Shown: piece after piece, positions 559 through 29,501 of the stretch
How positions within the stretch are numbered: the first letter of the stretch is position 1
Layout of the letters: every line of letters starts with the position of its first letter
Assembly (NCBI GenBank): GCA_963745035.1
Contig: CAVUVW010000011.1
Location: 128,001 to 192,000, forward strand
Length of the DNA: 64,000 nucleotides
DNA from: an uncultured delta proteobacterium
GTDB lineage: Bacteria > Desulfobacterota > Binatia > UBA9968
Direction: 5' to 3'
Program-made: the position numbers and the translations under genes
The notes under the pieces: model-generated
What the model was told of the DNA's origin: nothing
The model's database searches: none
The model's input: only the letters and a program-made list of their open reading frames with translations

Positions 559-622
559 GATTGAACTGAATTCTCCTACTACTCAGTCCTGTGGAATTTG
601 ACTGTAGCGTCGTTCAGTTCAA
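559..622 (+). repeat. Array repeat, full copy (leftmost)
   Basis: gattgaactgaattctcc...gcgtcgttcagttcaa. Confidence 0.9.
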
Positions 623-877
623 AGCAACGAAATAATTTATTGCGAGGCCTCGCGCAATGGAGTGCTAGTAGGCCACTTGATTCGGAATCAAGTTCGTTCT
701 GCGCTCAGGCGCGTCTGCGGGTCGTGGTGTCACAGCTCTAACGGGCTTTCGCCAGATTTCTTCGAGTCGCCCCTGGCAATGGTAGAGTCGGGGTTTGACA
801 ACTTCCTGCTATCTAACCGATAGTGACTTAACTCGCCTCGATGCTGCACGGTAGACGGCACCTCGGGAAGCAACAAA

Positions 878-1567
878 TTGACTAACGATGACGTCGAAAT
901 GGTATTTCGACTGGTCGCTGCCCTTATTGCGGGAGCCTGCATCGGCTACGAGCGTTCGTATCACGGCAGACCCGCCGGTTTTCGTACACATGCGCTGGTC
1001 TGCACAGCATCCAGTCTTCTGATGCTGGTCACCGTCTATGAGGCGCACTGGGTGCGCGCAACCGCCGACCTCGTGAGACTCGACCCGACAAGGATGGCTC
1101 AAGGAATCATGACCGGAATCGGTTTTCTCGGCGCGGGCGTGATTATGAAGGATGGGCTTTCCGTCCGAGGACTCACTACGGCGGCGTCAATCTGGATTAC
1201 GGCGGCAATCGGCATTCTGGCTGGGATTGGCTTCTATTTTCCCCTGGTTGTTTCCGTCATACTCACTATCGGTATGCTGTCCGTCCTCCGCCTAGTCGAA
1301 GCTCGTATGCCTATGCAGGCGTATTATCACGTCGATATTCGTTTCACGCCGAATTCCGAGATGGGGGAAGGCACGTTGCGGGCGCTGATCGAAAGTTACG
1401 GGTTCAGTATTGCCAATTTCAGCTACCGCCTCGATGGCGAAGGCCGCGTGCGTCGTCACACCATGGTGCTGCGCAGTACCGATCGCTCCAGCGCATCGCG
1501 CCTTTCCGAGAGACTCGAGGCCACAGAGGCGGTACAGGAGTTTCGCATCGCACCCACTGGTGATTAA
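878..1567 (+). CDS. MgtC/SapB family membrane protein
   Basis: IGYER...PAGFRTH, DPTRMAQGIMTGIGFLGAG and GLTTAASIW motifs. Confidence 0.9.
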   Translation: MTNDDVEMVFRLVAALIAGACIGYERSYHGRPAGFRTHALVCTASSLLMLVTVYEAHWVRATADLVRLDPTRMAQGIMTGIGFLGAGVIMKDGLSVRGLTTAASIWITAAIGILAGIGFYFPLVVSVILTIGMLSVLRLVEARMPMQAYYHVDIRFTPNSEMGEGTLRALIESYGFSIANFSYRLDGEGRVRRHTMVLRSTDRSSASRLSERLEATEAVQEFRIAPTGD

Positions 1568-1696
1568 GCCAAGCTATCACAGTGAAATCCTTCTGGAGCG
1601 CTCTTCGCGACTACTCAGTCACTCTGAAAAACTCCATCTCGATTAATGGGATACGGGCAGTGGAACCCAAATCGCCCACTTAACCCCGCCACCCGC

Positions 1697-1827
1697 TGTG
1701 CTAGTTTTGTGCTAGTTCAATCCGCAAACACAAGGAAGCACGAGCAGAGAAAAGCGGAGGCGCTCGTTTCCTGTTGGTTTCTGTGGATGTTTGTCGGTGA
1801 GCACCGACCACCACGAGACTCGAAATC
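1697..1827 (+). other. att-like scar: tandem arm-type repeats plus short tRNA-Ser(CGA)-like anticodon segment
   Basis: tgtgctagtt x2 (1697-1717); gactcgaaatc at 1817-1827 (short match). Confidence 0.35.
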
Positions 1828-1885
1828 AAGTTTACCCGGAAATGCTAATGACGGTCGAAATCCTTCCGCGCTCGGGTGGGCTCTA

Positions 1886-2898
1886 ATTGAATTAAATTCT
1901 CCACCAGTATTAGCCGGGCGCTGAAACTGTCGTATCCTCCTCTCTCTAAAAACAAGGGAGAGGAGAAAAGTCATGCGGCAGGTCATTCGACGATTTTTGA
2001 AGCACCTCCAAGCGGAGAAAAACGCAAGTCCATCCACCATAGAATCCTACCAATACGACCTAAACAAGTTCGACGACTATGTCGTTCATCGACTCGGAAA
2101 CAGGTTCTTACCAGGAGATATTTCCCGCGACCACATACGAGATTATCTTACGTGGCTCTCGGAAGCCATCAAAAGCCAAACGGTCCATTGGCTTGTGCAC
2201 GGGCTTTGGCAGCGATACGGTCGTTTTTTAAATACGCTCATCGAGCAGGGATGCTGAGAGACAATCCCACTGCAGATATTGCCCTTCCAAAAATCAGGAT
2301 GGGCGAAATCCGCGCTCTGTCACAGGATGAATGCGGTCGGCTTCCTGCGAGTTGTCGAGACGAATCGGAGTCCATTTAGAAAAATCAGGGACAGGGCAAT
2401 AATAGCGACATTCCTCTTAACCGGAGCGAGATTACGCGAAATTGTGCAGCTGGACAAAGCCGACATCGACCTTCATCAATCGACAGTACGGCTGCATCGT
2501 AAAGGCGGGGACATTAACATACTGCCTTTGGCTGACTCGGCAAAAACAGAACTGAAATTGTACCTAAAGCAGCGGCGGAAGAGGAGCCGCGCAAGGGCAC
2601 TATTTATATCTTGCCAGAATCGAAGAATATCACGTGGCGCGGTTTGGTATCTGGTGAAGAAATATTTCAAGAAATGCCGACTGAGAACGCGCGGCATGGG
2701 ACCACACGCTTTGCGGCATACCTTTGCGACACTGCTTTTAAGCCACGGAGAAAACCTCAGAGTCATTCAGAGTCTTATGAATCACAAAAGTCTGGCGACG
2801 ACAGCACGGTATTTGCCTTCGCGAAGCAAAGAGCTGGTAAAAGCCGTGAACGGTCTGAAGCTGTTGCGTGGCTAGAATGTGCCGTCGTTCAGTTCAAT
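1886..2898 (+). mobile_element. Putative ~1-kb recombinase element bounded by the left and right halves of the array repeat
   Basis: attgaattaaattctccacc at 1886 and cgtcgttcagttcaat at 2883-2898 enclose only the recombinase gene. Confidence 0.7.
1973..2875 (+). CDS. XerC/XerD-like tyrosine recombinase (two frameshifts, ~2160 and ~2340)
   Basis: N-terminal SAM-like domain (ASPSTIESYQYDL), RSFFKY..DNP, TGARLREI, HALRHTFAT, MNHKSLATTARY; RBS ggagaggag; no IntI-type insertion before HxLRH. Confidence 0.9.
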
Positions 2899-3123
2899 TC
2901 TGCAAGGTATCCTAAATTCGTCCCTTTTTTTCTGCATACAAAGCAACTTCTTGTGGTCCTATTAATGGAAAGCGACACGGCGAAAATAACAGAGAAGGGT
3001 GGGAGCCAACACATGTGCAGGAGATCCGTTTGCAAGACGATAGTTTCTATTTGAAGTTTGTTCAATATTAGACAGCAATCGTGACCTAGGAGTATATCGT
3101 GATGTCTCATACTGGAGGTCGTC

Positions 3124-3645
3124 ATGCGAACCATTTTTATTTTACCCTTCATATTCGCTGCTTGGATTGTGATGCCGACGGTTTCAGGCGCCCAAGTAGG
3201 AAAAGACGCTACGTCGCCGGGGCAGCTTGCACCGGGCGCTGTGCAAGGCGCACGCATGGAGAGTTGCAAGGCAAGTACCAAAACGGAAATCGCGTTGCTG
3301 TTTGACCGCTGGAATCAGTCGCTGCAGACAGGTGATCCGCGCAAGGTGGTCGCCAATTATGCGGAGCCTTCGATCCTCTTGCCCACCGTTTCAAACAAAC
3401 CACGTCTCACGCCAGCCGAGAAGGAGGATTACTTTCATCATTTCTTAGAGGACCGCCCTTCCGGCAAGATTGACTTGCGAAACGTTGAGCTTGGTTGCAA
3501 CACTGCGGTTGATGCAGGTCTTTACACCTTCACGTTTGCCAGGACAGGGGCAACGGTCAGCGGACGCTATACCTACACCTATCGCTGGAACGGTTCAGAA
3601 TGGTTAATTACAAGTCACCATTCTTCAGCGATGCCAGAGAAGTAG
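3124..3645 (+). CDS. Secreted SgcJ/EcaC (CaMKII-association, NTF2-like) family protein
   Basis: LFDRWNQSLQTGDP, LLPTVSN, DAGLYTF, RYTYTY..WLITSHHSSAMPE. Confidence 0.85.
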   Translation: MRTIFILPFIFAAWIVMPTVSGAQVGKDATSPGQLAPGAVQGARMESCKASTKTEIALLFDRWNQSLQTGDPRKVVANYAEPSILLPTVSNKPRLTPAEKEDYFHHFLEDRPSGKIDLRNVELGCNTAVDAGLYTFTFARTGATVSGRYTYTYRWNGSEWLITSHHSSAMPEK

Positions 3646-3652
3646 CCGAGAG

Positions 3653-3709
3653 GCATAACCCTTTATTCCAGAGGACCGCCTGTGGCGGCCGCGGATGGAC
3701 GCGTTGTCC
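3653..3709 (+). other. Degenerate integron attC site
   Basis: GCATAAC...ggaccgcctgtggcggcc hairpin...GTTGTCC just after the stop codon. Confidence 0.5.
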
Positions 3710-4010
3710 GGCTGTAAGACGACGACAATTGCTACTATGCTGCGTTGAACGAAGAGAAGATCGAAAAGATGGAATTGGCGTATGAAGAGAATTTGAATTT
3801 ACAGGGACTTTTGGGCTTAGGTGATTTCAAAATATTCGGGTCAATTGTGGATATGCAGAAGTAAAGCGGGACTATACGGAACTGGAGAATCATAGTTATG
3901 CGGATGGAGAGTTCCGGAGATCCCCAGCCGTGCCGGATCGACCGTCGTCTTGCAAAGCAGTTCCAGCAGGACTACCGTCATCGAGCAATTCTAGGTGAAC
4001 GGAGGAGAAC

Positions 4011-4529
4011 CTGTCGCTACACGGCGTTTCACACATCGGCCTCTCGACGCTCGACCTCGCCGCCACCCGCGCCTTCTACGAGGATGTGCTCGGCTTCCGC
4101 CTAGTGACCATTGAGCAGATCGATTTCGAAGAAGGGGGATGTATCCGCCACGCGTTCTTCGACTGTGGCGATGGCCAACTTCTCGGATTCATGGAGCCTC
4201 GCGGGATCCAAGGACTACCAGCCGAATACGACACCGGCATCAATCAAAGCCTCGGGCTACCCGAATGGTTCTACCACTTCGCCTTCAACGCTGGCTCGGT
4301 CGAAGAGTTGCACGCGAAGCGCGCGGAGCTGATTGCCAAAGGCATCAAGGTCACGGCGATCGTCGACCACGAGTGGGTGCTGTCGATCTACTTCAAAGAT
4401 CCCAACGGCCTCCTGCTCGAGTATGCGGTGCAGACGCGTGCGCCCGCCGACCCTCACGTAAGCCCGGGCAGGCGCATTATGGCCAGCATGCGTGGACCGT
4501 CCCGGGTCACCGATTTCCGCGATTCCTAG
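4011..4529 (+). CDS. VOC/glyoxalase family protein
   Basis: In-frame HGVSHIGLST..TRAFYEDVLGF upstream of listed ORF, HFAF, SIYFKDPNGLLLE; RBS ggaggag at ~4001 with CTG start. Confidence 0.8.
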   Translation: MSLHGVSHIGLSTLDLAATRAFYEDVLGFRLVTIEQIDFEEGGCIRHAFFDCGDGQLLGFMEPRGIQGLPAEYDTGINQSLGLPEWFYHFAFNAGSVEELHAKRAELIAKGIKVTAIVDHEWVLSIYFKDPNGLLLEYAVQTRAPADPHVSPGRRIMASMRGPSRVTDFRDS

Positions 4530-4590
4530 ACCTCGGTGGGATGCATCGAGAACTCGCTATCGTGCTGGGCTCGAGATGGTGAGATGAGTC

Positions 4591-4655
4591 GCATGACCAG
4601 GCGATGAAGCAGACGGTCGCTTTCGGCGCCCGGAGCTTATCACGATCCGTTAGGC
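4591..4655 (+). other. Integron attC site (R'' box mutated)
   Basis: gcatgac-caggcgatgaagc...gcttatc...GTTAGGC. Confidence 0.6.
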
Positions 4656-4701
4656 GCATTGACCAGGAGAGCGCTGGTATCACAGGAAAGGAGGAAATGC
4701 C

Positions 4702-5276
4702 ATGGCAAAGCCCTCGAAATTTGCTCACATCGTTTATCGCACGAGACGCTTCGAGGAGATGATTGCTTGGTACGAAAAAGTGTTCGAAGCAAGGGTGCAA
4801 TACAAAAATCCAGCCCTCGCATTTCTTACATATGACGATGAGCATCACCGTTTCGCTTTTGGCAACCTAGAAATGCTCGATCCATCCGGTAAGGCTCCCG
4901 GCGGCAAAACCGATATCGGTGTCGACCACGTGGCTTATACATACGCAAGCCTCCGCGATCTTGTCGATACTATACACGGCTCAAGAGGGAGGGCATCAGA
5001 CCTTACTGGCCCATTCGCCACGGTCCAACCCTGTCGCTCTACTACAAAGATCCTGACGGAAACCGAATCGAGTTTCAGGTCGATTGCTTTGCGACGGCCG
5101 ATGAGGCTAATGCATATATGCGAGGAGACGGTTTCTCTTCCAATCCTATCGGCGTGAACTTCGATCCAGATGAACTGGTAGAGGAATTTAAGAAAGGCGT
5201 GCCCGAGCAGCAGCTTCTCGCCCGACCCGAAGGACCACCGGCCTCAATCCCGCGCGAGCATGGTCTTGGCGCCTAA
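4702..5276 (+). CDS. VOC family protein (BphC-like), frameshift near 4975
   Basis: FAHIVYRT, FLTYDDEHHR, VDHVAYTY, then HGPTLSLYYKDPDGNRIEFQ in another frame. Confidence 0.8.
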
Positions 5277-5351
5277 CAGCGCCTTGTTGCCCGACACCTA
5301 TGTCTCGCCGCTTCGCGCTCAGCACGGCGCGGCAAAACGCGAACGTTACGC
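5271..5351 (+). other. Integron attC site
   Basis: GCCTAAC (overlaps stop codon)...imperfect palindrome...GTTACGC. Confidence 0.7.
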
Positions 5352-5368
5352 GACGTGAGGAGCATGTG

Positions 5369-5495
5369 ATGCGACTTCCGAAGCAGGTCGTGCGTATCGT
5401 GAACGCGGTCACCAAACTTGCCCTTCTCGTAGGCATCCCACGGCCTCCATACACGGCGGGAAAACGCGCTCATCGTCGAAACCGTCGGGCCGAGC
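5369..5495 (+). pseudogene. 5' fragment of a cassette gene (nitroreductase/deazaflavin-dependent-like), truncated just before the repeat
   Basis: MRLPKQVVRIVN...then ALIVETVGR in a shifted frame; RBS gaggag. Confidence 0.35.
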
Positions 5496-5507
5496 GTTAG
5501 CCATCAG

Positions 5508-5575
5508 GATTGAACTGAATTCTCCATCAACGTAATCTCGCGTGGCATCACATTGAAGCGTCGTTCAGTTCAATC
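5508..5575 (+). repeat. Array repeat, full copy
   Basis: gattgaactgaattctccatcaacgtaatctcgcgtggcatcacattgaagcgtcgttcagttcaatc. Confidence 0.95.
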
Positions 5576-5731
5576 TCAGGCTAAATTTGATCTTGCCATT
5601 TGATGAATACTGTCGAAGGCATCGCCGCGCGGAACGTCTGATATTCAGTCAGCGTGCTTCTCAGTTCGATGTCCGCTCGCCCTCTCATAAACGGCTTGCT
5701 TGATCGCCGCAGGTAGTCAGGGGGCCACCCA

Positions 5732-6543
5732 TCAGAAGGTTGCATGCGTGTCCTGCCATCCGAGTCCGTTCCAAAACACTGTTTCGAGCAATCGCCTTAT
5801 TTTCCGACTTGGAAGATTGCGAAAGATCCCATTGTTCGGCCCTACCATGCGGTAATCCAAATGAATCCGCCGGTAATTCCATTTGACACTGTCAAGCGGT
5901 CGCCATTCGCCAGGGGCCTCCTCGCCGAACAGCCCGCTTGAGCCGCCTTCAAACCGATGGTCGACGAAAATGCCCTCTCTTGCCGGGTTGGGGCATCGTT
6001 GCTCAGTAATAGTGAGTTGTGGGACAATCTTGAATCTCTTGTATCCCAGCTGATCGAGTAGATGCAGTTGCGTGAACGTGTCCTTGATCGACGTCGCGCT
6101 TGCCTCCACCGAAATATACTTCGGCTTCTCCTCTACGCTGAGCAGACCTTCGAGGCATACGGAATCCATTCCCTCGATATCTACTTTCATGTAGTACGGC
6201 ACACCGAATTTTAGGATGACGTCCTTGATCGTAGTCGCCTCGACCTTAACCGGATGACTCTTGAATCCTCGCGCCTCGTTTCTTTTGACCCATTCGGGGT
6301 TTGCTGTCCCCCATATGCTGACTTGCTCGTTGACAAAAAAATCGATGGTTCCGACGGTATGACTGATCGCCTTGTTGATGATCTGTAATTGGCCAGAGCC
6401 GATCGCTGCCGAGAATTTGTGTACACACTCCTCGCAGAGTTGGGCATTCGCCTCGATTCCGACGACCCGAAATCCTTTTCTGAGATAGAACTCGTGTCTT
6501 CTCCTGTATGCATTCCAACGTCATAGATTAAGTCGCCTGGCAT
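5732..6543 (-). CDS. FkbM family methyltransferase (frameshifted)
   Basis: LIYDVGMHTGEDT at N-terminus; YYMKVDIEGMD..CL; PKYISVE. Confidence 0.8.
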
Positions 6544-6812: not shown

Positions 6813-6880
6813 GATTGAATTGAATTCTCCACCAACGCAATCTCGCGCGGCATCACATTGAAGCGTCGTTCAGTTCAATC
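6813..6880 (+). repeat. Array repeat, full copy
   Basis: taggattgaattgaattctccacc...gcgtcgttcagttcaatccta. Confidence 0.95.
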
Positions 6881-7626: not shown

Positions 7627-10600
7627 ATGACTGCTACAGCTCCAATTATCACGCTCTCGCCGCGGGATTACGACGCGGTTTTGTTCGACCTCGACGGTGT
7701 ACTGACGAAAACGGCGACCGTGCATGCCGCGGCATGGAAAAAACTGTTCGATGGATATCTAAAGCAGCGCGCCCAAGACACCGGAGGACCCTTCGTCGCC
7801 TTCGACATCGATGCCGACTACCTGCGCTATGTCGACGGCAAACCGCGTTACGATGGCGTGGTGTCTTTTCTCCACTCGCGCGGAATTGATTTGCCGTTGG
7901 GTTCGGCCGGCGACGCGCCCGGCACGGGAACGGTACATGCTCTCGGCAAGCTAAAGGATCGATACTTCACGGAGAGTCTGGAGGAGCAAGGCGTCGAGAC
8001 TTATGAACCGACGATCTCTCTCGTGCGCACGCTGCGCGCGCAAGAGATCAAGACCGCGGTCGTCTCTTCGAGCAACAACTGCGCGGCAGTTCTGCAGGCC
8101 GCCGGCATCGCGCATCTTTTCGATACGCGGGTTGATGGCAGGGAGATCGCCCGCCTCGCGCTCAAAGGCAAGCCGGCGCCCGATGCTTTCCTCGAAGCGG
8201 CGCGGCGTCTGGCTGTCGAGCCGTCCCGCGTCGTCGTCGTGGAGGACGCGATCGCCGGCGTCGCTGCGGGACGTGCCGGCCGTTTCTGCTGTGTGATCGG
8301 TGTCGATCGAGGTGGGCATTCTAAGGCGCTGCGTGAGGCCGGTGCTAATGTCGTGGTAACGAGCTTGGCGCAGGTTAGGATCAGTCCAGAACCCGCCTCC
8401 GCCTGGACGCTAGTGTATGAAGGATACGAGCCAGCGCGGGAAAGAATCCGCGAAGCCCTATGCGCGCTAGGGAACGGCTATTTCGCTACTCGTGGAGCAG
8501 CGACCTGGGCGCGGGCGGATGAGATTCACTACCCCGGGACCTACCTCGCCTGCGGCTATAACCGAATGCGCACTGATATTGCGGGCCGGATTGTCGAAAA
8601 CGAAGATCTCGTCAATCTTCCCAATTGGCTCCCCCTCGAATTTCGTATCGGCGAGGAGGACTGGTTCGATCCGGCGACGGTCACGATCCGTCTTTATGAT
8701 CAGCGGCTAGATCTGCGACGTGGCATGCTGCTGCGAACGATCCGCTTCGAAGATCGCCAGGGGCGGCAGACTACGCTGAAGGAACGCCGTCTGGTGTCCA
8801 TGAGCGACATGCATGTGGCGGCGCTCGAGCTGAGTCTTTCTGCCGAGAATTGGTCGGCCAAGGTCACGGTGCGTGCATCAATCGACGGCCGGATTGTCAA
8901 TAGCGGCGCGCAGCTCTACCTCAAATTCAACAACAAACATCTCGAGTTGCTGGAGCGCCAGGTCCTCGACAGCGACGGCGTTTATATGCTCGTGCGCACC
9001 AGCCAGTCACATATTTACGTCGCCCAGGCGGCGCGAACTCAAGCGTTTGTCGACGGCAAAATCCGTGAGGTGCCGCGCCGTGTTATCGAAGAGCCGGAAT
9101 ACATCGGGCAAGAGATGGTGATCGACGTGCGGCAGGGCGAGACTTTGGCCCTCGAGAAGATCGCGTCTTTCTACACCTCGCGTGATCAAGCTATTTCGGA
9201 GTGCGGTTTGGCGGCGCGTAAGGCGATTGGCCGGGCGGGCCGCTTTGACGCGGTGATGGCCGAGCATGTTCTTTCCTGGAAGCACTTGTGGCGCCGCTTC
9301 GATGTGCATATTCAGCCGGCCGAACCGGGATTCAAACTGAATGTACTGATGCTGTTGCGGCTGAACATGTTTCATCTCTTGCAGGCCGTCTCGCCCAACT
9401 CGATCGGACTCGATATCGGCGTGCCGGCGCGCGGCTGGACCGGCGAGGCCTACGAGGGCCACATTTTTTGGGACGAGCTTTTTATTTTTCCGTTCCTAAA
9501 TTATCGCATGCCGGAAATCACCCGCTCGTTGCTATTGTACCGCTATCGCCGTTTGGGGGAGGCGCGTGCCGCAGCGAGAATGGCGGGGTTGCGGGGCGCG
9601 ATGTTTCCCTGGCAAAGCGGCAGCGACGGGCAGGAAGAGACGCAGGAGCTCAACTTCAACCCGCGCTCACAGCGCTGGGTGCCGGACAATTCTTACCTGC
9701 AGCGCCATGTCGGCAGCGCCATCGCTTACAACGCTTGGCAGTATTATCAAGTCACTCACGATGTCGAGTTTATGCAAGCCCATGGCGCCGAGCTGATTCT
9801 CGAAATCGCTCGCTTTTGGTCGAGTATCGCGAGTTTCAACGAGGAGAGCGGTCGGTACGAGATTAGCGGGGTTATGGGCCCGGACGAGTTCCACGAGGGA
9901 TACCCCGGCTCATCGTCGCCCGGCCTTAATAACAATGCCTTCACTAACCTCATGGCGGCTTGGGTGCTGTGCCGCGCGCTCGATGTGCTCGAACTCCTTC
10001 CCGACATACGCCGCGCCGAGCTGAGCGCCCGACTCGGGCTATCGCCTGACGAGATTGTGCGATGGGGCGAAGTGAGCCGCAAGATGGTCGTGCCCTTTCA
10101 CGGCGACGGCATCATCAGCCAGTTTACAGGGTATGAAAATCTCGCTGAGCTGAACTGGGCGGACTACCGCGCCCGCTACGGCAATATTCAGCGGCTCGAT
10201 TTGATTCTGGAAGCCGAGAACGACAGTGCGAACCGCTACAAATTATCGAAGCAAGCCGACGTGCTGATGTTGTTTTATCTGTTTTCCGCGCAGGAGCTGG
10301 GCGAGCTGTTCAGGCGTTTAGGTTATCCGTTCGACCCTGAGATGATTCATCGCAACGTTGCCTACTATGACGCGCGCTCGTCGCATGGTTCGACGCTCTC
10401 GCGCGTAGTCCATGCGTGGGTGTTGGCGCGTTCGGACAGGCCGCGCTCGATGACTTATTTCGCCGAGGCACTGCAGAGCGATGTCAGCGATATTCAGCAA
10501 GGGACTACCGCCGAAGGTGTTCATCTCGGCGCTATGGCGGGATCGGTAGATCTGGTGCAGCGCGTCTCGACAGGCATCGAAATTACCGGCGACGTTCTGC

Positions 10601-10869
10601 GACTCGATCCACAATTGCCCCAGGAAATGGAGCGGCTCGACATGCGCATTCGCTACCGCGGACATTCGCTCGATTTGCGGCTAACCCGCGATACCCTGAC
10701 AGTGCGCGGCCGCGAGCGCGGTGTCGCTGCGATCAAGCTGGGAATCAAAGACGAGGTATACGACTTTCAATGCGGCAGCACGCGCGTCTTCAAACTCACC
10801 CGCGAACAGGCTGAAAGCAATGCATCAGATAGGACGATCACCGCCAAGGGCCGAAGAGCCCGAAGCTAA
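7627..10869 (+). CDS. HAD beta-phosphoglucomutase-like domain fused to GH65 (trehalose/maltose phosphorylase-like)
   Basis: LFDLDGV, GKPAPD, VVEDA; LGNGYFATRG, YEGHIFWDE, GPDEFH, KQADV, HGSTLS. Confidence 0.92.
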   Translation: MTATAPIITLSPRDYDAVLFDLDGVLTKTATVHAAAWKKLFDGYLKQRAQDTGGPFVAFDIDADYLRYVDGKPRYDGVVSFLHSRGIDLPLGSAGDAPGTGTVHALGKLKDRYFTESLEEQGVETYEPTISLVRTLRAQEIKTAVVSSSNNCAAVLQAAGIAHLFDTRVDGREIARLALKGKPAPDAFLEAARRLAVEPSRVVVVEDAIAGVAAGRAGRFCCVIGVDRGGHSKALREAGANVVVTSLAQVRISPEPASAWTLVYEGYEPARERIREALCALGNGYFATRGAATWARADEIHYPGTYLACGYNRMRTDIAGRIVENEDLVNLPNWLPLEFRIGEEDWFDPATVTIRLYDQRLDLRRGMLLRTIRFEDRQGRQTTLKERRLVSMSDMHVAALELSLSAENWSAKVTVRASIDGRIVNSGAQLYLKFNNKHLELLERQVLDSDGVYMLVRTSQSHIYVAQAARTQAFVDGKIREVPRRVIEEPEYIGQEMVIDVRQGETLALEKIASFYTSRDQAISECGLAARKAIGRAGRFDAVMAEHVLSWKHLWRRFDVHIQPAEPGFKLNVLMLLRLNMFHLLQAVSPNSIGLDIGVPARGWTGEAYEGHIFWDELFIFPFLNYRMPEITRSLLLYRYRRLGEARAAARMAGLRGAMFPWQSGSDGQEETQELNFNPRSQRWVPDNSYLQRHVGSAIAYNAWQYYQVTHDVEFMQAHGAELILEIARFWSSIASFNEESGRYEISGVMGPDEFHEGYPGSSSPGLNNNAFTNLMAAWVLCRALDVLELLPDIRRAELSARLGLSPDEIVRWGEVSRKMVVPFHGDGIISQFTGYENLAELNWADYRARYGNIQRLDLILEAENDSANRYKLSKQADVLMLFYLFSAQELGELFRRLGYPFDPEMIHRNVAYYDARSSHGSTLSRVVHAWVLARSDRPRSMTYFAEALQSDVSDIQQGTTAEGVHLGAMAGSVDLVQRVSTGIEITGDVLRLDPQLPQEMERLDMRIRYRGHSLDLRLTRDTLTVRGRERGVAAIKLGIKDEVYDFQCGSTRVFKLTREQAESNASDRTITAKGRRARS

Positions 10870-11307: not shown

Positions 11308-11334
11308 GATTGAACTGATTTCTCCATCAATTCA
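11308..11334 (+). repeat. Array repeat, left half only
   Basis: gccaggattgaactgatttctccatcaattca. Confidence 0.85.
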
Positions 11335-11719
11335 GGTGGAGCGCAGCGCTCGGTGCTTCCCCGGCCTCTCCAGACTGGGAGTCTGGCGCGGCGATATCTA
11401 TGGTGGCATGTCTGGAGGGAGAGATTTAGTCAGCGCTTTCGAGCGTGCAACCGTCCGGCGCGACCTTGAAGATTGAAGCATCGGGAATCGTCACGTAGCC
11501 GTCCAGCCGCTTGCAGTAGTACAGCTTGACGATCGTTTCGCTTGGTATCAGTTCGCCCTCCGGGTCAATGATTTCCCGAAGACAAAAATAAGCAAGCTGA
11601 AAAGAACGTCACCGAAGAAGAAGACAAGAAGAGCGCGCTTAATTGCAGGTGCCATTGTCACACGCCGAAACACAAGCACTAGCGGGTCTTCAGCTCTAAC
11701 TGTGCTTGATAAACGCGGA

Positions 11720-14175: not shown

Positions 14176-14222
14176 GAAACTGATCGCCAAAAAGCGGCGT
14201 CGCGCCTTGCGTTATCCTTTTA

Positions 14223-14245
14223 ACTGAATTGAATTCTCCGCCGGT
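14223..14245 (+). repeat. Array repeat, degenerate left half
   Basis: actgaattgaattctccgccggt, resembles the 1886 left end. Confidence 0.5.
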
Positions 14246-14367
14246 ACACTAGCGTTCTCCAGCCAAAGCGATTTGACTGATGGACCCGTCACAGGAGAAG
14301 TCGACCGGCGTTTACTACGACAGCTCACTTAACAGGTGGTGTCGATACTACGCTCAAAGGACACATC

Positions 14368-14849: not shown

Positions 14850-14913
14850 GATTGAACTGATTTCTCCATCAAGCCAATCTTGCCAGATTAATGGTGCGTC
14901 GTTCAGTTCAATC
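14850..14913 (+). repeat. Array repeat, full copy
   Basis: gattgaactgatttctccatcaagcc...gcgtcgttcagttcaatc. Confidence 0.92.
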
Positions 14914-14989: not shown

Positions 14990-16027
14990 GTGTCCGTGAT
15001 AAGTCTTGTCACGAACGAGGCGCGAAATGAAAAAACGAGTTGGTCATCAATCCTGGTTGCAGCCATGCTGCTCGCTGTTGCAGTCATAGCCGAGGCGCAG
15101 CAGCAGGCGAAGAAGGTACCTCGGATAGGGTATCTAGCATCGAGAGACCCGGCTACGGAGTCCACGCGGTCCGAGCCAGTTCGACTGGCTCTGCGGGAGC
15201 TTGGCTACATAGAAGGAAAGAACGTCGTCATCGACTACCGATATGCGGAGGGGAAGCGTGATCGCTACCCTGAGCTTCTGGCCGAACTGGTCCGTCTCAA
15301 GGTTGATGTCATCGTGGCAGCAGGAGGCGAGCCGACGGTCCGGGCGGCCATTAAAGCGACGAAGACGATTCCCATCGTAATGACAGGTGGTGGGGCCGAT
15401 CCTGTCGAGGCAGGCTATATCAAAAGCCTTGCCCGTCCCGGCGGCAACGTCACCGGCATTACGAACCTTGGCTTAGAGCTAGGCGGAAAACGGCTGGAGT
15501 TGCTCAAAGAAGCTCTTCCCAAGGTGGCCCGTGTCGCGGTTCTCTACGATCCGGCGGCAGGTTCAGACTTCCTACGCGAGGTGAATGAGGATCTCCCAAT
15601 CGCGGCACATGGGTTGGGTTTGGATATTCGGTCTTGGGAGGCACGAGCTGTGGGCGATTTCGAAAGGATATTCGCTGCGCTAAACAAGGAGCGCCCCGAT
15701 GGGCTCTATGTGACCGGGAGCCTGCTCTTTCATACTAACCGAAAACGGATTGTCGAGTTTGCGTTACAGAGCCGGTTACCGTCTGTATACAGTAGAAGAG
15801 AATATGTAGATGAAGGGGGGCTCATATACTATGGGGCGGACCTCGCGGACAGCTACCGGCGTGTCGCATATTACGTGGACAAAATTCTCAAAGGTACGAA
15901 GCCTGCGGACTTGCCTGTCGAACAACCTGCAAAGTTCGAGCTGGCGATCAATCTTAAAACCGCAAAGCAGATCGGTCTGACGATTCCACAAAAAGTGTTG
16001 TCGCGGGCGGATAAGGTGATCAAGTAA
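14990..16027 (+). CDS. ABC transporter substrate-binding protein (ABC_sub_bind type)
   Basis: PRIGYL, LRELGYIEGKN, SLARPGGNVTG, KPADLPVEQP.KFELAINLKTAKQIG, RADKVIK; true start probably ATG ~15028 with a frameshift. Confidence 0.92.
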   Translation: MSVISLVTNEARNEKTSWSSILVAAMLLAVAVIAEAQQQAKKVPRIGYLASRDPATESTRSEPVRLALRELGYIEGKNVVIDYRYAEGKRDRYPELLAELVRLKVDVIVAAGGEPTVRAAIKATKTIPIVMTGGGADPVEAGYIKSLARPGGNVTGITNLGLELGGKRLELLKEALPKVARVAVLYDPAAGSDFLREVNEDLPIAAHGLGLDIRSWEARAVGDFERIFAALNKERPDGLYVTGSLLFHTNRKRIVEFALQSRLPSVYSRREYVDEGGLIYYGADLADSYRRVAYYVDKILKGTKPADLPVEQPAKFELAINLKTAKQIGLTIPQKVLSRADKVIK

Positions 16028-16044
16028 CCACCCGGCGACGCTAG

Positions 16045-16104
16045 GATTGAACTGAATTCTCCATCTAATCAGTCTCGCCTTAGATCAACCTGAAGCGTCG
16101 TTCA
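16045..16104 (+). repeat. Array repeat, near-full copy (right IR decayed)
   Basis: ctaggattgaactgaattctccatc...tgaagcgtcgttca. Confidence 0.9.
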
Positions 16105-16227
16105 TGTTGGAGCCGCATTCGAAAAAGCGAAGATAGAGCGTACCCAAGGGCTTCTCGTAAATGCTCGATTCCGATCGGGTTAAAGCCCTCCAATAAAGCA
16201 TTTTCTTCCTTCCCAAATTTTTTACAC

Positions 16228-16260
16228 GATCAAACTGAAGCGTCGTTTAGTTGAATTCTA
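16228..16260 (+). repeat. Array repeat, right half only
   Basis: gatcaaactgaagcgtcgtttagttgaattcta. Confidence 0.75.
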
Positions 16261-16646
16261 GGCGCGCCAACCCTGCCGCCAAGCTGAAAGCGCCTCGCAA
16301 AAAACTGTTTCACCTCCGCTGTTTCTCAGAGAAACGGAGGTGACGGTGACCTCTGTCCGTACAAGAAAATTCATCGATCCGCCGTTGGAGGCCCACCGCC
16401 TCGGGCTACTCATTAAAGGGATGTGAGTAAATTTCCTACCGACTCTAACTCTGAGTGTCTGCTTATCCAAACATTGTGAAAGGTTTGTTCACTAAATTTC
16501 ACGCGGTTGTGCTGGCATATGGATTGCCAGACTAAAAAGGATGTGAATTCACCTACTCAGCCCTACGAAGCGCGACTTGTGTGTAGGGTCAGTCGTTTTT
16601 AACCGGGATGGCCTTAAAAAGAGAAATAAAACAAATAAAGTAGTTT

Positions 16647-17066
16647 ATGAAAAAAATCTTCTCGGCGCTCCTATTTTTACAACTCTTGGTGTTGGCATTG
16701 ATGGCGCCGAATCTGTTTGCAGATGAAAGACGGGAATTCATTTCGAAAACAATGAATCCGGAGGTTCAAAAGCTTTTGGAAAACTGCGGCAGAGAAATAA
16801 TTGGCGAGGAGCCATTTTCAAGCAAGAATAATAATATCATGAACTATATGATCGGCTTTTATGATACCGATCACGGTTTGCTTGTTACGCTTCAAGCATT
16901 ACAGCAACGATTAAATGAGCATGGACGCGCGATCCCGGATGTTTATTCTAGCGAACTTGTGGCGATTGTATTCGTTGATCGATCGCTCTTGTGGTATAAA
17001 TCTCAAACCGCTAAGAGCACCTTAAAAGCAAAAATGGCGCGGTTAATGCAAAACCGATCTATTTAA
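16647..17066 (+). CDS. Secreted hypothetical protein (AT-rich)
   Basis: MKKIFSALLFLQLLVLA signal peptide; low GC. Confidence 0.6.
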   Translation: MKKIFSALLFLQLLVLALMAPNLFADERREFISKTMNPEVQKLLENCGREIIGEEPFSSKNNNIMNYMIGFYDTDHGLLVTLQALQQRLNEHGRAIPDVYSSELVAIVFVDRSLLWYKSQTAKSTLKAKMARLMQNRSI

Positions 17067-17246
17067 GCAGGCACCCTGCTTTTTATTTTTCTTTGAGTCC
17101 CGCATCGTAACATACCTCGAACTCCTCTCAACTTAGACGCCCTCCGTGCCGTTATCATCGAGCGCCGAACACTTTGCGAGTGACCCCTCACCCGTTTGGG
17201 TAGATCTTAGGAACCAGTTTATTAAACAACCATGCGACGATGCCAG

Positions 17247-17294
17247 GATTGAACTGAATTCTCCATCAACGCAATCTCGCCTGAAACACATTGA
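17247..17294 (+). repeat. Array repeat, left half plus core
   Basis: gccaggattgaactgaattctccatcaacgcaatctcgc...cacattga. Confidence 0.88.
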
Positions 17295-17589
17295 CGTTCG
17301 CATGTGTCCTCAGTGTAAGTCGCCGCACGTGCCGAAAGACCAGAGGCGGGAGCGCTAAGATGCCATTTCGCGTTATGCGGCGATGGGCCTTATACATGCG
17401 ACATTTCCCGTTCTCGCGAATGGAAAACTTAGATGTTTAGAACGCGCAGCGAGAGAGAGGAGGCAGAAAATGTGTGGACTAGAAATCTTTACTGATTAGA
17501 GTGCGGCTATCCCATGGATGGTTGGTGGTTACTCAGTACGTTTGGTCGGGACTTGGAATATCTGCCAAACAGGCATCAGTCGCCCGTGG

Positions 17590-17889
17590 TTACTTGATCA
17601 CTCTATCCGAAGCGCCCATATCCAAAGTGTCCTCTCTCCCCGCCCGCGCCAGCACATTCGGCGGAATCGTCACCCGCGATGAACGTTCGGCGTCCGGGAC
17701 GAGTGACAGATCCGGTTTTCCATCATCGATCCATTTCTTTGCGAATCTAAGACCGTCCATTTCCGCTTCTTCTCGTAGACGAAACGTTCGATTAACAGTT
17801 AACTTACTAGTTATCCCTTTACCATCTTCGCTCCAAATTATTGTAAGGCATAGCTTCCACTGACGCGGGGCCAGTCGCGAGGAGGACAC
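17590..17889 (-). CDS. Small hypothetical protein fused to ABC-SBP C-terminal remnants
   Basis: EAEMDGLRFAKKWIDDGKP followed by TIPPNVLARA...DRVIK*. Confidence 0.5.
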   Translation of the reverse strand: MSSSRLAPRQWKLCLTIIWSEDGKGITSKLTVNRTFRLREEAEMDGLRFAKKWIDDGKPDLSLVPDAERSSRVTIPPNVLARAGREDTLDMGASDRVIK

Positions 17890-17959
17890 GAGGATCCTAT
17901 GACCTTTGTGAGTTGCGTTGATGAATTTTTCTCCTAGATGTTGGTGGGCGAGTTCCTAC

Positions 17960-18352
17960 TTAGGAAGCCAGCAAATGGGTCCGCAGGACATCCCGTAGCA
18001 GTGGCAATTGTAACGGCTTGTACAAGATCTCTGCAGCGCCGGCATTAAGCGCGCGGTCGGCACGTTCTTCAACGTTGAAGTCGGTGGTCCACCCGCTATT
18101 TAAGACCACCGGGATATTGCGAGTGGACATATTCCTCTTTAATTGCACCGTTACTTCATCTCCATTTAACCCGGGCAAACGTATGTCCATCATGATCAGA
18201 TCAGGACGAAGGCTGAAAGCCTTGTCGAGGCCCTCTGGACCCGTAGCCGCTTCGACAACTTCGTGGCCCAAACCATTGAAAAACCCTCGAAGCGATTCTC
18301 GAAACTTTTCGTTGCCATCGACGATCAATATTTTTTTAGCCGTGTTGTGCAT
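17960..18352 (-). CDS. Single-domain response regulator (CheY/DivK-like)
   Basis: KILIVD, PDLIMMDIRLPGLNG, LYKP. Confidence 0.88.
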   Translation of the reverse strand: MHNTAKKILIVDGNEKFRESLRGFFNGLGHEVVEAATGPEGLDKAFSLRPDLIMMDIRLPGLNGDEVTVQLKRNMSTRNIPVVLNSGWTTDFNVEERADRALNAGAAEILYKPLQLPLLRDVLRTHLLAS

Positions 18353-18525
18353 GGAAGAAGCCTAGCAGCACAAGATATGCCAGCGCTTCAAATGTCAGTA
18401 TTTTGGTATTTTGTCGCCTTTAGCGCCTATGCAGCGATGTTTGGCGCTGCGACTTGCTTGGAGAATGACTGTCACTTTGCCAAGATTCGCGGGCCGTGCC
18501 TGCTCAGCCTTGGCGTTAGCGCCAG

Positions 18526-18594
18526 GATTGAACTGCATTCTCCATCAACGCAATCTCGCGTGGCATCAACATTGAAGCGTCGTTCAGTTCAATC
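18526..18594 (+). repeat. Array repeat, full copy abutting an attC-like 3' end
   Basis: gctcagccttggcGTTAGCG-ccag-gattgaactgcattctcc...gttcagttcaatc. Confidence 0.95.
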
Positions 18595-19202
18595 TCAGGC
18601 TAAATCTGGTCCTCCCAGTCGACGAATATCTGTTGCCTTCGTATCGTAAATCCGAGTTTCGTAGCGATTCGAATTCAGCCAGATCTTCGAGGCTCATCGC
18701 CCAGGATAAACAAAGACTCTGCCGGGAAATCTCCCCTTGGGCTAAAACGTGGGATCAATACATCATCGCGCCGGATTATGATTATAATTTACTCGGTGGG
18801 TGCGCTGGGTGTAGAGTTCGTATATTGGTTGAATCTCTCTTTTAAGGGGAAACTTTATGGATAAAAATGCGCCTGGCCTTGATGTCGGAACTAAGTGCGG
18901 ACATTCGTGTACAAGACTAGATGGCCCCATTAAGAATGACTTTGGTTGTTGTATTTGTATGGGCGAGACGCAGTTGTGTACATCGTGCGAAAAGAGAAGA
19001 CTCTCGGAAGATCCCGTTGGGGAGAAGGACGAAAGTGTCAACACACCTGGAAGCCGAAAAGATTAAGGTTTAGGAACCGGCGTTGGATCGACGGCCTCGG
19101 CTAGAATAGCGCGAATCAACCGGATCTTTTGCCCGACAACTTTTTGAGATCGTAAGTTACGGTCTCGTGGCGCGGGCGGGTAAAGTGATGAAGTGACGCC
19201 AA

Positions 19203-19236
19203 GATTGAACTGTATTCTCCATCAATTCAATTTCAC
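19203..19236 (+). repeat. Array repeat, left half
   Basis: gccaagattgaactgtattctccatcaattcaat. Confidence 0.85.
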
Positions 19237-19321
19237 GTCGATGACCCTGGAGTGCTACGGTCCGTGCTGCCCGGCCCTTTTCCTGCGCGGGCGGACAGAG
19301 TGATAAAATAAGGAGCGCATT

Positions 19322-19984
19322 ATGATCGGTGCCAAGGCTCTGTTAGAAGGGATTCGGCAAGATTTGCAGCCCGTCACGGAACGGCTTCTGGGGCATCCTT
19401 ACGTGAAGGCTCTGGAGGAAGGGCAGATTGAGCGGGAGAAGCTCCGTCTTTTTGCCGGCGAGCAGTACAGCATCATAGCGAGTGATCTCAAAAGCGTCGC
19501 TTATTTGCTTAGCCGCTTCGGTAGCGCTCCGAGCCGTGATTTCTTTCTCGGAATCCTGCAGGGTGAAAGAGCTGCCTGGGATGGCTTGCTAACGTTCGTC
19601 AATGCCCTCGGCCTAAGCGAAGCTCAACTGAGCAAGCACGAGCCAGCGGCTGGCGCTCATGCCTACACCTGCTACATGGCGTGGCTTGCGCTCTATGCCT
19701 CTGACGCCGAGATTGCTGCTGCCTACCTGGTCAATTTTCCAGCGTGGGGTCAGAACTGTGGCCGCCTGAGCCGGATTCTGAAAGAGCGTTTCGGTATGGG
19801 CGAGAAGGAAGTCGCTTTTTTTGATCTCTTCGCCTCTCCTCCAACTACATTTGAAGCCGACGCTCTGAAAGTTATTCAGCAGGGACTCGATCGAGGCATC
19901 GAGCCGAGCCTGATCCAACGGGCGGCTCGGTTACTCCAGGCCTACGAGCTCATGTATTGGGATACCCTCTACGGGGCGTCTTAG
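19322..19984 (+). CDS. TenA/THI-4 (heme-oxygenase-like) family protein
   Basis: HPYVKALEEG, AHAYTCYMAWL, NFPAWG, YELMYWD. Confidence 0.8.
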   Translation: MIGAKALLEGIRQDLQPVTERLLGHPYVKALEEGQIEREKLRLFAGEQYSIIASDLKSVAYLLSRFGSAPSRDFFLGILQGERAAWDGLLTFVNALGLSEAQLSKHEPAAGAHAYTCYMAWLALYASDAEIAAAYLVNFPAWGQNCGRLSRILKERFGMGEKEVAFFDLFASPPTTFEADALKVIQQGLDRGIEPSLIQRAARLLQAYELMYWDTLYGAS

Positions 19985-20045
19985 CCGTGCTGGCAGGGCG
20001 GATAAAGTGATCGAGTGAGCGAAGAAAACCAAGCGGCAATGCTAG

Positions 20046-20113
20046 GATTGAACTGAATTCTCCATCAAACCAATCTTACGTCTCATCCAACTGAAGCGTC
20101 GTTCAGTTCAATC
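20046..20113 (+). repeat. Array repeat, full copy
   Basis: taggattgaactgaa...ttcagttcaatccta, perfect 15-bp IR. Confidence 0.95.
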
Positions 20114-20299
20114 CTACATGGCTGTTTTTGTGATGGTCTGGCCGAATAGGCCGCCGATTCGTTAGGCAGATAAGCTGCCGTGCCGGTCGGCTTTTTAGCG
20201 AAAAACTCTAACGTTGACAATCCAGGTGAGCTGATGGATATTCCACGCAATTTGAACTTTTATTGTCCAAGCTGTCGCCGAGATAAGCCGACCGGCATT

Positions 20300-20340
20300 T
20301 GTCGCCGCCTACGGCGGCGCGGCTCACTTAATAGTTAGAC
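20300..20340 (+). other. attC-like 3' half preceding the methyltransferase gene
   Basis: cgccgcctacggcggcg hairpin, ggctca...GTTAGAC. Confidence 0.5.
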
Positions 20341-20374
20341 CTCATTAACCATCGACACGTTTAGGGAGGCGACT

Positions 20375-21170
20375 ATGGAACCCAACCTGCATACGGATGC
20401 CAATAAGTACCAGGCCGGGATGGGAGGCTGGAGTAAAACTCTTGCTCCTCTATTCATCGAATTTATAGGAGGTATCAAAGAAGGGGATCGGGTGTTAGAT
20501 GTAGGCTGTGGTACGGGTTCACTCACAAACACCATTGCTGATACAACAAAAGCCGCAACAGTTATCGGCATCGACCCTTCAGTAGGCTACTTAGAATATG
20601 CCCGTACACACAATACACGTTCGCACGTTTCCTTTGAAATCGGGGATGCTCAGAAACTTTCCTATGACAATGGCTCTTTCGACTGCTGCGTATCTTCGTT
20701 GATGATTCAATTTGTCTCGGCTGCGGACGCGGCAGCAAGAGAAATGAGGCGCGTCACAAAGAACGCGCGGAACTGTTGCAACTTGTGTATGGGACAACAG
20801 TGGAGGCATGGAGTTAGCCGAAAGATTCTGGGATGCGGCCATTGCAATTGACCCAGAAGCCAAACGAACTGGGAATAGCCGTTATGGATCGCCAAGCGCG
20901 CTTTCAGATTTGTGGAGCGCCGCTGGTTTTGCGAATGTTGAAACAGGACCTCTGGTTATTCCTATGGAGTTTCCTTCCTTCGAGGATTTGTGGCGCATTC
21001 AGTCAGATGCGCAGGGACCGCCTAAACTTTATATCAGCAGTCTGTCTGAGGATCGCCGACAGTTATTGAAGGAGCGACTACGCGCGGACATTCTTGGTAA
21101 TCGCCCTCATGGATCGATTAGCCTTCGTGCAAAGGCTTGGGCAGTGCGTGGGATAGTGCCGGCAGGGTAG
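20375..21170 (+). CDS. Class I SAM methyltransferase (frameshift ~20760)
   Basis: YQAGMGGWS, VLDVGCGTGSL, GIDPS; C-terminus LRAKAWAVRG. Confidence 0.85.
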
Positions 21171-21294
21171 ATTTTCGACGGACTAGTTTGCGCAAATTGG
21201 AGTAGCTGTGATCCATCCATCCTAGTAAACGAAGCGAACGGATAATCTTCTTATCGCTTGGGCGTGGCCGCGTGTCGGTTTCGCATTGTGTGGT

Positions 21295-21351
21295 GTCTAA
21301 CTTTCCGCTTCAAGCCGCCGCATGACGCGCGGGCTGAGCGCGGCGTTAGCG
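21295..21351 (+). other. Integron attC site
   Basis: GTCTAAC-tttccgcttcaagcc...ggctgagcgcggc-GTTAGCG. Confidence 0.6.
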
Positions 21352-21355
21352 CCAG

Positions 21356-21422
21356 GATTGAACTGAATTCTCCATCAAACCAATCTTACGTCTCATCCAA
21401 CACAAGCGTCGTTCAGTTCAAT
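21356..21422 (+). repeat. Array repeat, full copy (rightmost)
   Basis: gattgaactgaattctccatcaaaccaatcttacgtctcatccaacacaagcgtcgttcagttcaat. Confidence 0.95.
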
Positions 21423-29490: not shown

Positions 29491-29501
29491 GAAAACCAGC
29501 G

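Follow-up and report, generated by a model that had tools for sequence, protein, structure and literature searches.

Within a 64,000-nucleotide (nt) stretch of DNA, hereafter the window (positions 128001–192000 of contig C11 in a 28-contig, 7.43-Mb assembly, genome G000 below), unrelated accessory genes are separated by copies of a short palindromic-ended repeat, which raises the question of what this repeat is and which enzyme acts, or once acted, upon it. The original prediction for this locus held that the repeats are recombination sites of an integron-analogous gene capture platform, and that they are served by the tyrosine recombinase embedded among them. We propose, with moderate confidence and from sequence comparison, that each copy of 66 or 68 base pairs (bp) is a pair of inverted dif-like core recombination sites for an Xer-type tyrosine recombinase. 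The cognate enzyme is most likely an Xer-like recombinase of 307 amino acids (aa) whose gene lies between a pair of such sites, and the array in the window is probably either a fossil or served in trans.

Anatomy of the repeat

Copies in the window were located with the left arm GATTGAACTGAATTCTCC, allowing up to three mismatches, and with the right arm GCGTCGTTCAGTTCAATC, and shuffled sequence served as the control for both. The left arm occurs 13 times, always on the + strand and within 559–21423 (starts at 559, 1885, 5508, 6813, 11308, 14222, 14850, 16045, 17247, 18526, 19203, 20046 and 21356), against a mean of 0.06 and a maximum of 1 in the shuffles. The right arm, with the same chance level, occurs nine times, also always on the + strand (starts at 607, 2882, 5558, 6863, 14896, 16240, 18577, 20096 and 21406). 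Neither arm search gave a copy in 21424–64000. Every repeat coordinate of the original prediction, including those of the left-only and right-only copies, was recovered to within 1 nt, and its statements that all copies share one orientation (left arms 13/13, right arms 9/9), lie between genes and are absent from the remaining 42 kb were borne out. Seven of the copies in the window are full length, at 64–69 bp. The guanine-plus-cytosine fraction of the array, 0.48–0.56, is below that of most of the remaining window.

Each 66- or 68-bp copy is made up of two inverted 30-bp sites with a 12-6-12 layout. Site 1 consists of the strong arm GATTGAACTGAA, the centre TTCTCC and a weak arm, while site 2 consists of a weak arm, the centre GCGTCG and the strong arm TTCAGTTCAATC. 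Among 66 distinct full copies, the linker that joins them is 6 bp long in 30 and 8 bp long in 22, and the repeat therefore falls into 66- and 68-bp size classes. In these 66 copies the inner 12-mer of each site was reverse-complemented and compared with its own outer arm. Identity peaked solely at a spacing of 6 bp, where it reached 6.97/12 for site 1 and 6.56/12 for site 2; the 12 other spacings gave 1.1–4.8. The sites that flank the recombinase gene share the 6-bp peak (5.9/12 in 42 downstream sites and 6.27/12 in 22 upstream sites), and the arrangement of two inverted 11–12-bp arms around a 6-bp centre that characterizes dif and pdif sites is thus present in three independent site sets. The centre reads TTCTCC in 63/66 and GCGTCG in 53/66 of the full copies. 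As in dif and pdif sites, one arm is conserved and the other variable: the strong arm is nearly invariant, and the weak arm retains chiefly its outer positions 1–4 or 1–5, plus position 10. The strong arm TTCAGTTCAAT matches the XerD-binding site of pdif, given as TTATGTTAAAT in Table 1 of PMC13141974, at 8/11 positions. From this layout we infer that recombination would take place at the 6-bp centres.

Because the repeat resolves into two dyad sites, the left-only and right-only copies can be read as single complete sites. The earlier objection that the repeat is longer than the 28-bp dif and pdif sites falls away for the same reason, each copy being two 12-6-12 sites. The sites in the window, with full copies termed junction elements, are as follows.

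559–624, + strand: full junction element, 66 bp; site 1 at 559–588, 6-bp linker, site 2 at 595–624; left edge of the array
1885–1914, + strand: site 1 alone; strong arm AATTGAATTAAA, TTCTCC, weak arm; directly upstream of the recombinase gene
2870–2899, + strand: site 2 alone; weak arm overlapping the recombinase stop codon, centre CCGTCG, strong arm TTCAGTTCAATT
5508–5575, + strand: full junction element, 68 bp; a GTTAGCC core precedes its left arm by 12 nt
6813–6880, + strand: full junction element, 68 bp
11308–11337, + strand: site 1 alone (left-only copy)
14222–14251, + strand: degenerate site 1 with 3 mismatches over arm and centre; preceded by a GTTATCC core
14850–14913, + strand: full junction element, 64 bp
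16045–16104, + strand: site 1 complete, site 2 truncated after the first 4 nt of its strong arm
16228–16257, + strand: site 2 alone (right-only copy)
17247–17276, + strand: site 1 alone; the profile match extends to about 17295
18526–18594, + strand: full junction element, 69 bp; GTTAGCG core beginning 11 nt upstream
19203–19232, + strand: site 1 alone; left part of a long-core variant
20046–20113, + strand: full junction element, 68 bp; follows a PF04392 gene-end remnant and the tail GAAAACCAAGCGGCAATGCTAG
21356–21423, + strand: full junction element, 68 bp; right edge of the array

The long-core variant whose left part lies at 19203 is complete elsewhere in the genome and in contigs from three studies. 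Read along the window, the sites run 1,2|1,2|1,2|1,2|1,1,1,2|1,2*,2|1,1,2|1,1,2|1,2, where 2* is the truncated site, and by hand count 9/13 of the site-1 copies reach a site 2 before the next site 1. Sites of alternating orientation that delimit two types of module, as in dif modules, are accordingly found in the window.

Minimal elements of 30 nt, with two strong arms around a GCGTCG-type centre and no second site, were also seen in the same genome (G000 C26:54579–54670 and C14:1010084–1010175). They share downstream sequence with the copy at 559–624 (window 595–699).

The nested recombinase

The left-only copy at 1885 and the right-only copy at 2882 enclose a broken gene.

1974–2875, + strand: Xer-like tyrosine recombinase pseudogene; PF00589 on the 2279–2875 frame; two frameshifts

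The weak arm of the downstream site begins within the last codons of this gene and overlaps its stop codon. Its frameshifts, a loss of 4 nt and a gain of 1 nt, show against both a 91% identical homologue at locus L066 and intact 307-aa relatives; the L066 copy in turn is without about 82 nt that the window copy has, so that both are broken, each differently. The 91% identity of the two units begins at the left arm and ends at the right arm, beyond which the flanks are unrelated. An intact 307-aa gene enclosed by both arms was found twice in genome G054 and once in G055, and G050 holds an intact 307-aa recombinase with the right arm only.

In metagenomes 72 loci were examined and 36 recombinase units scored, 17 of which are open. 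Downstream sequence was long enough in 32 units, and in 30 of these the stop codon is followed at 8–11 nt by the right arm (at 10–11 nt in 29); another unit, whose flank is short, has the arm as well. The two units without a right arm are relatives of 27–30% identity. The left arm stands 62–70 nt before the ATG in 18/33 units. The repeat is thus tied to a specific family of tyrosine recombinases that is nested inside it in many genomes, a point in favour of the original prediction.

Against the XerC, XerD and XerA models the recombinase reaches about 200 bits, short of the cut-off in each case; the integron-integrase model gives it 65 bits, with only its C-terminal end matching. It carries PF00589 and PF02899, and is not the HUH Y1 transposase that defines the transposases associated with repetitive extragenic palindromes (REP; RAYT). 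A host XerCD pair might also be considered as the enzyme. The only good match to the dif consensus in the window's genome is a candidate chromosomal dif at G000 C26:167396 (...GATAA GAAATA TTATGTCAACT), a tentative assignment made with a degenerate consensus pattern, to which the site has one mismatch. Its arm TTATGTCAACT equals the element arm at 6/11 positions, which is not the likeness to the host dif that service by host XerCD would lead one to expect. Because the candidate host dif has a different arm, we favour the nested recombinase over host XerCD.

A second Xer-like recombinase family was seen in genome G018. Its members are of 284–310 aa and 34–40% identical to that of the window, and are found at L050 4105–4960, L060 3780–4655 and 11670–12546, L059 3663–4148, L053 and L054. 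Several copies are found inside element arrays or next to them and others elsewhere, with no fixed orientation. This family may be a separate mobile element or an alternative enzyme.

Distribution of the element

A genome-wide nhmmer search with a profile of the repeat gave 71 rows, some of which are weak reverse-strand echoes of the same copies. Counted by hand from this table, there are 11 clusters of at least two copies, and 10 of the 11 have a single orientation. The repeat had at first been seen as specific to 559–21422, which the genome-wide rows and clusters contradict. Of the features that the suggested profile scan was to look for, clustering and a bias of orientation are seen in this genome, and linkage to homologous recombinases is seen in relatives too.

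Full copies are present in 29/90 genomes of the family, distributed over 11/23 genera, and a reversed control pattern gave 0 matches. The highest counts are in G018 (33), G056 (25) and the window's genome (16). Public records that hold the exact left arm are mostly metagenome-assembled genomes (MAGs) labelled Candidatus Binatia or uncultured delta proteobacterium; by our own estimate for an 18-mer in 596 Gb, about 17 of the 104 stretches perhaps match by chance. No conserved neighbourhood of the window was found in close relatives, where the genes are dispersed among contigs and the best match reaches 85% over 1 kb.

Cargo, flanks and module boundaries

The main genes carried by the array are the following.

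878–1567, + strand: MgtC family protein
7627–10869, + strand: fusion of haloacid dehalogenase (HAD) hydrolase and glycoside hydrolase/phosphorylase of family GH65, 1080 aa
14990–16027, + strand: PF04392 ABC-type substrate-binding protein; commonest gene family immediately upstream of elements
17960–18352, − strand: response-regulator receiver protein
19322–19984, + strand: TenA/THI-4 family protein, between a lone site 1 and the next full element
20375–20851, + strand: class I S-adenosylmethionine-dependent methyltransferase

A SnoaL-like protein and a glyoxalase-fold protein are further cargo. The genes of the array are unrelated accessory genes, in line with what had been predicted. The repeats mark module boundaries and modules bounded by them recur in other arrays, which upholds their proposed role as cassette delimiters. 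Duplicated blocks end at or within the arms, and identical cores occur with different flanks. When the upstream setting of 76 full copies was classed, 28 followed a PF04392 gene with a conserved tail, 7 stood close after a stop codon and 19 were left unclassed. In a search with a loose pattern, the PF04392 tail was followed by the left arm in 30 of 126 matches, as flagged by script; two of the remaining matches (L137 and L055) carry an arm that the script missed, and the others look like chance. The two commonest leaders have a right arm upstream in 15/17 and 10/12 cases. Tails and leaders alike thus point to arms that remain with their modules.

In 75 copies the upstream flank, the core and the downstream flank were uncorrelated (Spearman 0.02, 0.01 and −0.05), and class tests of association among the parts of the repeat gave p = 0.35 and p = 0.34. 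Arm variants set against flank class or core type gave p = 0.05–0.06 in an underpowered test. The lack of correlation among flanks and core fits crossover zones on both sides of the core, and so do the left arms after tails, the right arms before leaders and the ends of the duplicated blocks.

The PF04392 gene of the array (window 15089–16026) belongs to a very large paralogue family, members of which form long tandem runs at a spacing of about 1 kb (G000 C17:177–204 kb, C14:387–414 kb, C2:1–26 kb and C15:1–4 kb). No junction element was found within these runs by nhmmer, and only the PF04392 subfamily with the tail GAAAACCAAGCGGCGATGCYAG has a junction element after it. Following the element at 20046 is a conserved non-coding block of about 230 nt (window 20114–20340), with at least five further copies in the genome (G000 C14:612935–613172, C10:18425–18658, C17:1324–1554, C26:80839–81078 and C6:35553–35749). 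Within it are a GTTAGGC core, a hairpin resembling a terminator, a promoter-like stretch of the TTGACA type and an attC-like palindrome of 135 nt (20206–20340), and one copy lies about 6 kb from the integron integrase. Outside the array, the window contains tandem paralogues at 27268–30296, 44136–46167, 58334–61268 and 61633–62937, of which one set consists of three at about 1.2–1.3 kb, another of three at 885 bp, and the others of pairs at 1.55 and 1.09 kb.

Relationship to integrons

Two canonical attC sites were found in the window.

5271–5351, + strand: canonical attC site, 81 bp (GCCTAAC ... GTTACGC)
21295–21351, + strand: canonical attC site (GTCTAAC ... GTTAGCG), its GTT 11 nt before the next element

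Both came from crude script heuristics, which gave two full sites in 1–22000 and none in 22001–64000; partial 3' halves of attC sites seen by eye before 5508, 14223 and 18526 are excluded from these counts. An intact integron integrase, IntI, is encoded on contig C6 of the same genome (445 bits on TIGR02249, cut-off 265), and its translation shows the IntI-specific insertion. IntI is present in 13/24 same-genus genomes (one of them, G005, unpublished). In G054, two of the recombinase-bearing units lie 5–8 kb downstream of intI and among canonical attC sites, in a complete integron with an IntI of 478 bits, GTTAGGC at the likely attI and five canonical attC sites; its cassettes encode a rhodanese, an O-methyltransferase, a short-chain dehydrogenase and a methyltransferase. 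Given IntI, the attC sites and the classes of junction, the region is an integron-type cassette array without an integrase, most joints of which carry an extra element. With an intact IntI encoded on another contig and canonical attC sites within it, the array is not independent of integrons. The idea of a stand-alone platform was therefore abandoned, as was the statement that attC boxes are absent, in so far as it applied to the array.

For the repeat itself that statement holds in part. The repeat does not have the canonical end boxes RYYYAAC and GTTRRRY, although its outer 7-mers, ATTGAAC and GTTCAAT, are each only one position off, with complementary mismatches, and AAC and GTT are kept. 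It is possible, then, that the repeats are a lineage-specific class of attC, like the uniform repeats of sedentary chromosomal integrons, and are recombined by IntI as folded single strands, and that the arrays are attC clusters without an integrase in which the recombinase is mere cargo. Besides these outer boxes, the presence of IntI in the genome and the genus and of canonical attC sites in the array, the kb-scale spacing of the co-oriented copies after the ends of reading frames would suit such sites. Single-strand folds of the repeat likewise give a 12-bp outer stem and then a 5x5 unpaired bubble, which resemble an R box with its unpaired central spacer. Shuffles, however, fold as well as the inner region does (mean z −0.44 in 66 copies, 9% below −2), and covariation of the inner helix is weak, with 61.6% paired and a score equalled in 20/500 shuffles, in an alignment made by MAFFT that is non-structural, so that a weak stem in a subset may remain. 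With inner fold and covariation both weak, the L box that IntI needs is unsupported. Also against an attC class, the core is not linked to the upstream gene, and ten stretches of 7–20 kb around six IntI genes in five genomes gave no element match below E = 0.3, whereas IntI-adjoining arrays (G015 and G054) carry canonical sites of the form GCCTAAC ... GTTAGGC. Moreover, the right arm is kept beside the recombinase even where the left arm is absent, and must therefore work without a hairpin partner. We consider an attC class distinctly unlikely.

An attC-like hairpin over the whole repeat was tried as a candidate structure and is weakened by the unstable, non-covarying inner stem and by the retention of right arms without left arms.

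The stability of the 12-bp stem, the position of the elements between co-oriented genes and a −35-like hexamer, TTGAAC, read from the left arm might also suggest that the elements act at the level of RNA or transcription, as intergenic hairpins, insulators or promoters, with a co-orientation that merely follows the genes. This seems to us very improbable. A 12-bp stem with a 42-nt loop and no run of T is not a terminator, an Rfam scan of the repeat returned no family beyond one unrelated match (E = 0.67), and the pairing with a recombinase, the dyad sites and the restriction to accessory arrays would all be left unexplained.

Two further features were noted in connection with integrons. A 9-bp unit, GTTCAANNN, occurs in short tandem arrays of 3–5 units that are paired about 0.8–3 kb apart and bracket genes. 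In the window these are at 54964–55020 and 57973–58020, and elsewhere at L036 13112–13156 and 13910–13945, L029 2226–3083 and 9841–9954, L031 1433–2300 and 19291–19336, and L174 221–263, 923–979, 1379–1543 and 3325–3376. In four genomes such arrays lie no more than a few kb from the integron integrase gene, and the unit shares the letters GTTCAA with the strong arm of the element; the arrays may be binding sites of a regulator. Directly upstream of intI in the window's genome is an open reading frame (L001 2658–3341, G000 C6) whose first 80 or so residues we take to resemble a LexA-type repressor; past these it is of low complexity and perhaps in the wrong frame.

Evidence against paired sites and the possibility of targeted insertion

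A number of observations weigh against the paired-site reading. Likeness of the weak arms to the strong arm is only about 55%, and the left arm is absent in 15/33 recombinase units; a different conserved upstream region is common to those left-arm-less units that were examined. In the window the recombinase is broken, and the genomes richest in short elements fare no better: G018, with 33, has no homologue at E <= 1e-28, G056, with 25, has a copy with stop codons, and G000, with 16, has the frameshifted copy. Genomes with an intact recombinase carry 0–1 short elements (G054 1, G055 0, G050 1). Since the gene is a pseudogene in the window and the element-rich genomes are without an intact one, the array is at best a relic or served in trans, and the original statement that the repeats are served by the embedded recombinase fails for the present genome. 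Full independence is at odds with one class test, that of the upstream against the downstream flank (p = 0.03), and concerted evolution of the repeats could instead account for the lack of association among the parts. In the same 76 full copies whose upstream setting was classed, the GTT of a canonical core stands at a fixed distance before the left arm in 22 (offset −11 in 14 copies, −10 in 3, −12 in 1 and about −5 in 4), a regularity that paired sites do not explain.

Contig joints provide no recombination product either. Four public runs were compared at the joints, all as contigs rather than reads. Most joints link arms of different copies. One contig of run X6 joins 18516 to 21346, skipping the 2829 bp between identical junctions of attC core and left arm, and a joint of 19278 to 20090, seen in three studies, matches the long-core copy elsewhere in the genome. 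All of the joints are explicable as other copies of the repeat, and they therefore place no crossover.

The fixed distance of the left arm from GTT, mostly 11 nt, and the variable letters of the linker are better fitted by targeted insertion. The short copies would then be derivatives, similar to miniature inverted-repeat transposable elements (MITEs), of a 1-kb element in which the Xer-like gene lies between 12-bp terminal inverted repeats, and which inserts in a site- and orientation-specific manner by attC sites and gene ends and has colonised an ordinary integron array. Long and short forms do share both ends and the same kinds of position, the canonical attC sites upstream of such copies are intact, and the identical cores with different flanks noted above would be expected. 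Yet no empty site was found, the conserved leaders and tails never occurring without an arm, and in the 75 copies the flanks are uncorrelated, although they would have been contiguous before any insertion. Internal 12-6-12 dyads with fixed centres are unexpected for simple terminal repeats. We know of no bacterial insertion sequence (IS) family with a tyrosine recombinase. A plain MITE or IS, marked by inverted repeats with target-site duplications and by scattered copies in both orientations, had been named at the outset as what could overturn the prediction; of these marks the element shows the inverted repeats alone: the flanks, GCYAG and YYASG, do not repeat one another directly, so that no target-site duplication is seen, and the copies are clustered and co-oriented. 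On balance we regard insertion by a MITE-like element as rather unlikely.

Comparison with known systems and a proposed mechanism

The closest known system to the paired sites, judged by analogy, is that of the dif modules of Acinetobacter and their pdif sites for XerC/XerD, which appears nearer than attC. PMC13141974 describes dif modules as a feature of Acinetobacter plasmids, with a mode of movement that is debated. As presented there, pdif sites have the same succession of arm, 6-bp centre and arm, with one arm well kept and one degenerate, and dif modules share with the present array the alternating orientation of sites, two alternating module types, unrelated accessory cargo and fused modules where a site is missing. 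The differences from that description are also considerable: the arms here are 12 bp and not 11; the sites are in tight back-to-back pairs, so that one module type usually measures 6–8 bp; there are only two centres, one for each orientation; the arrays lie on chromosomes, are strictly co-oriented and come from soil MAGs labelled Binatia, of another phylum; a dedicated Xer-like gene is nested between a site pair; the candidate host dif has a different XerD-type arm (6/11); and integron attC sites are interspersed in the arrays.

Integron cassette arrays and attC clusters are similar in having co-oriented single-gene units with a palindromic-ended site after each gene, and the likeness is extended by the IntI gene of the genome, the canonical attC sites of the array and the recombinase units inside the complete integron of a relative. 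Unlike attC sites, the repeat has 7-mer boxes that are each one position off, is without a supported L-box stem or covariation, and has two arms that are nearly invariant in sequence; unlike IntI, its recombinase does not match the IntI model in full (65 bits, C-terminal end only). Systems of the XerS/difSL type have one site per chromosome, which serves to resolve chromosome dimers, whereas the present sites number dozens, lie in accessory arrays and come two to a gene. Genetic linkage of an Xer-like recombinase to its own dif-like site, which the abstract of PMC2731167 reports for XerS/difSL, is shared by the present system, in which the site starts within the last codons of the gene. REP/RAYT systems and MITEs resemble it in that a short palindromic-ended repeat has been amplified and a longer form holds an enzyme gene between the ends. 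They differ in that the enzyme here is a PF00589 tyrosine recombinase and not an HUH transposase, and in that the copies are clustered and co-oriented, not scattered, with no target-site duplication.

If the repeats are paired sites, the alternating sites would split the DNA into two kinds of module: gene modules, with strong arms facing inward, and small modules, with weak arms facing inward, which would usually be the linker alone and sometimes the recombinase gene. Sites with the same centre would be direct repeats, so that recombination of site 1 with site 1, or of site 2 with site 2, could excise or insert pairs of modules. Neighbouring inverted sites, having different centres, should not recombine with one another, and inversions would thereby be prevented, which is our proposed explanation for the strict co-orientation of the array. 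The system is interleaved with the integron, the array also holding integron cassettes. Anatomy, dyad symmetry, linkage to the recombinase, distribution and the absence of association among flanks and core are thus shown by the sequences, whereas crossover at the 6-bp centres and the identity of the enzyme are inferred.

We tentatively go one step further and suggest, as a possibility that we hold with considerable doubt, that bacteria possess a second, self-encoded gene-cassette platform beside the integron. Its sites would be paired and dif-like with two fixed centres, and hence directional and protected from inversion; its recombinase would be a dedicated Xer-like enzyme borne on a module; and it would dock 11 nt from attC cores, with possible exchange or storage of cassettes between the two systems. 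No description of such arrays was found in the limited library of literature that was searched.

The fixed spacing from attC cores bears on how integron cassettes are formed and docked. If the paired-site reading is true, the two-centre design would explain why the copies are so strictly co-oriented. One enzyme of 307 aa and sites of 30 bp would make up a small system that is amenable to testing. More broadly, it would mean that Xer-type sites can organise large cassette arrays outside Acinetobacter plasmids, on the chromosomes of uncultured soil bacteria of multiple genera.

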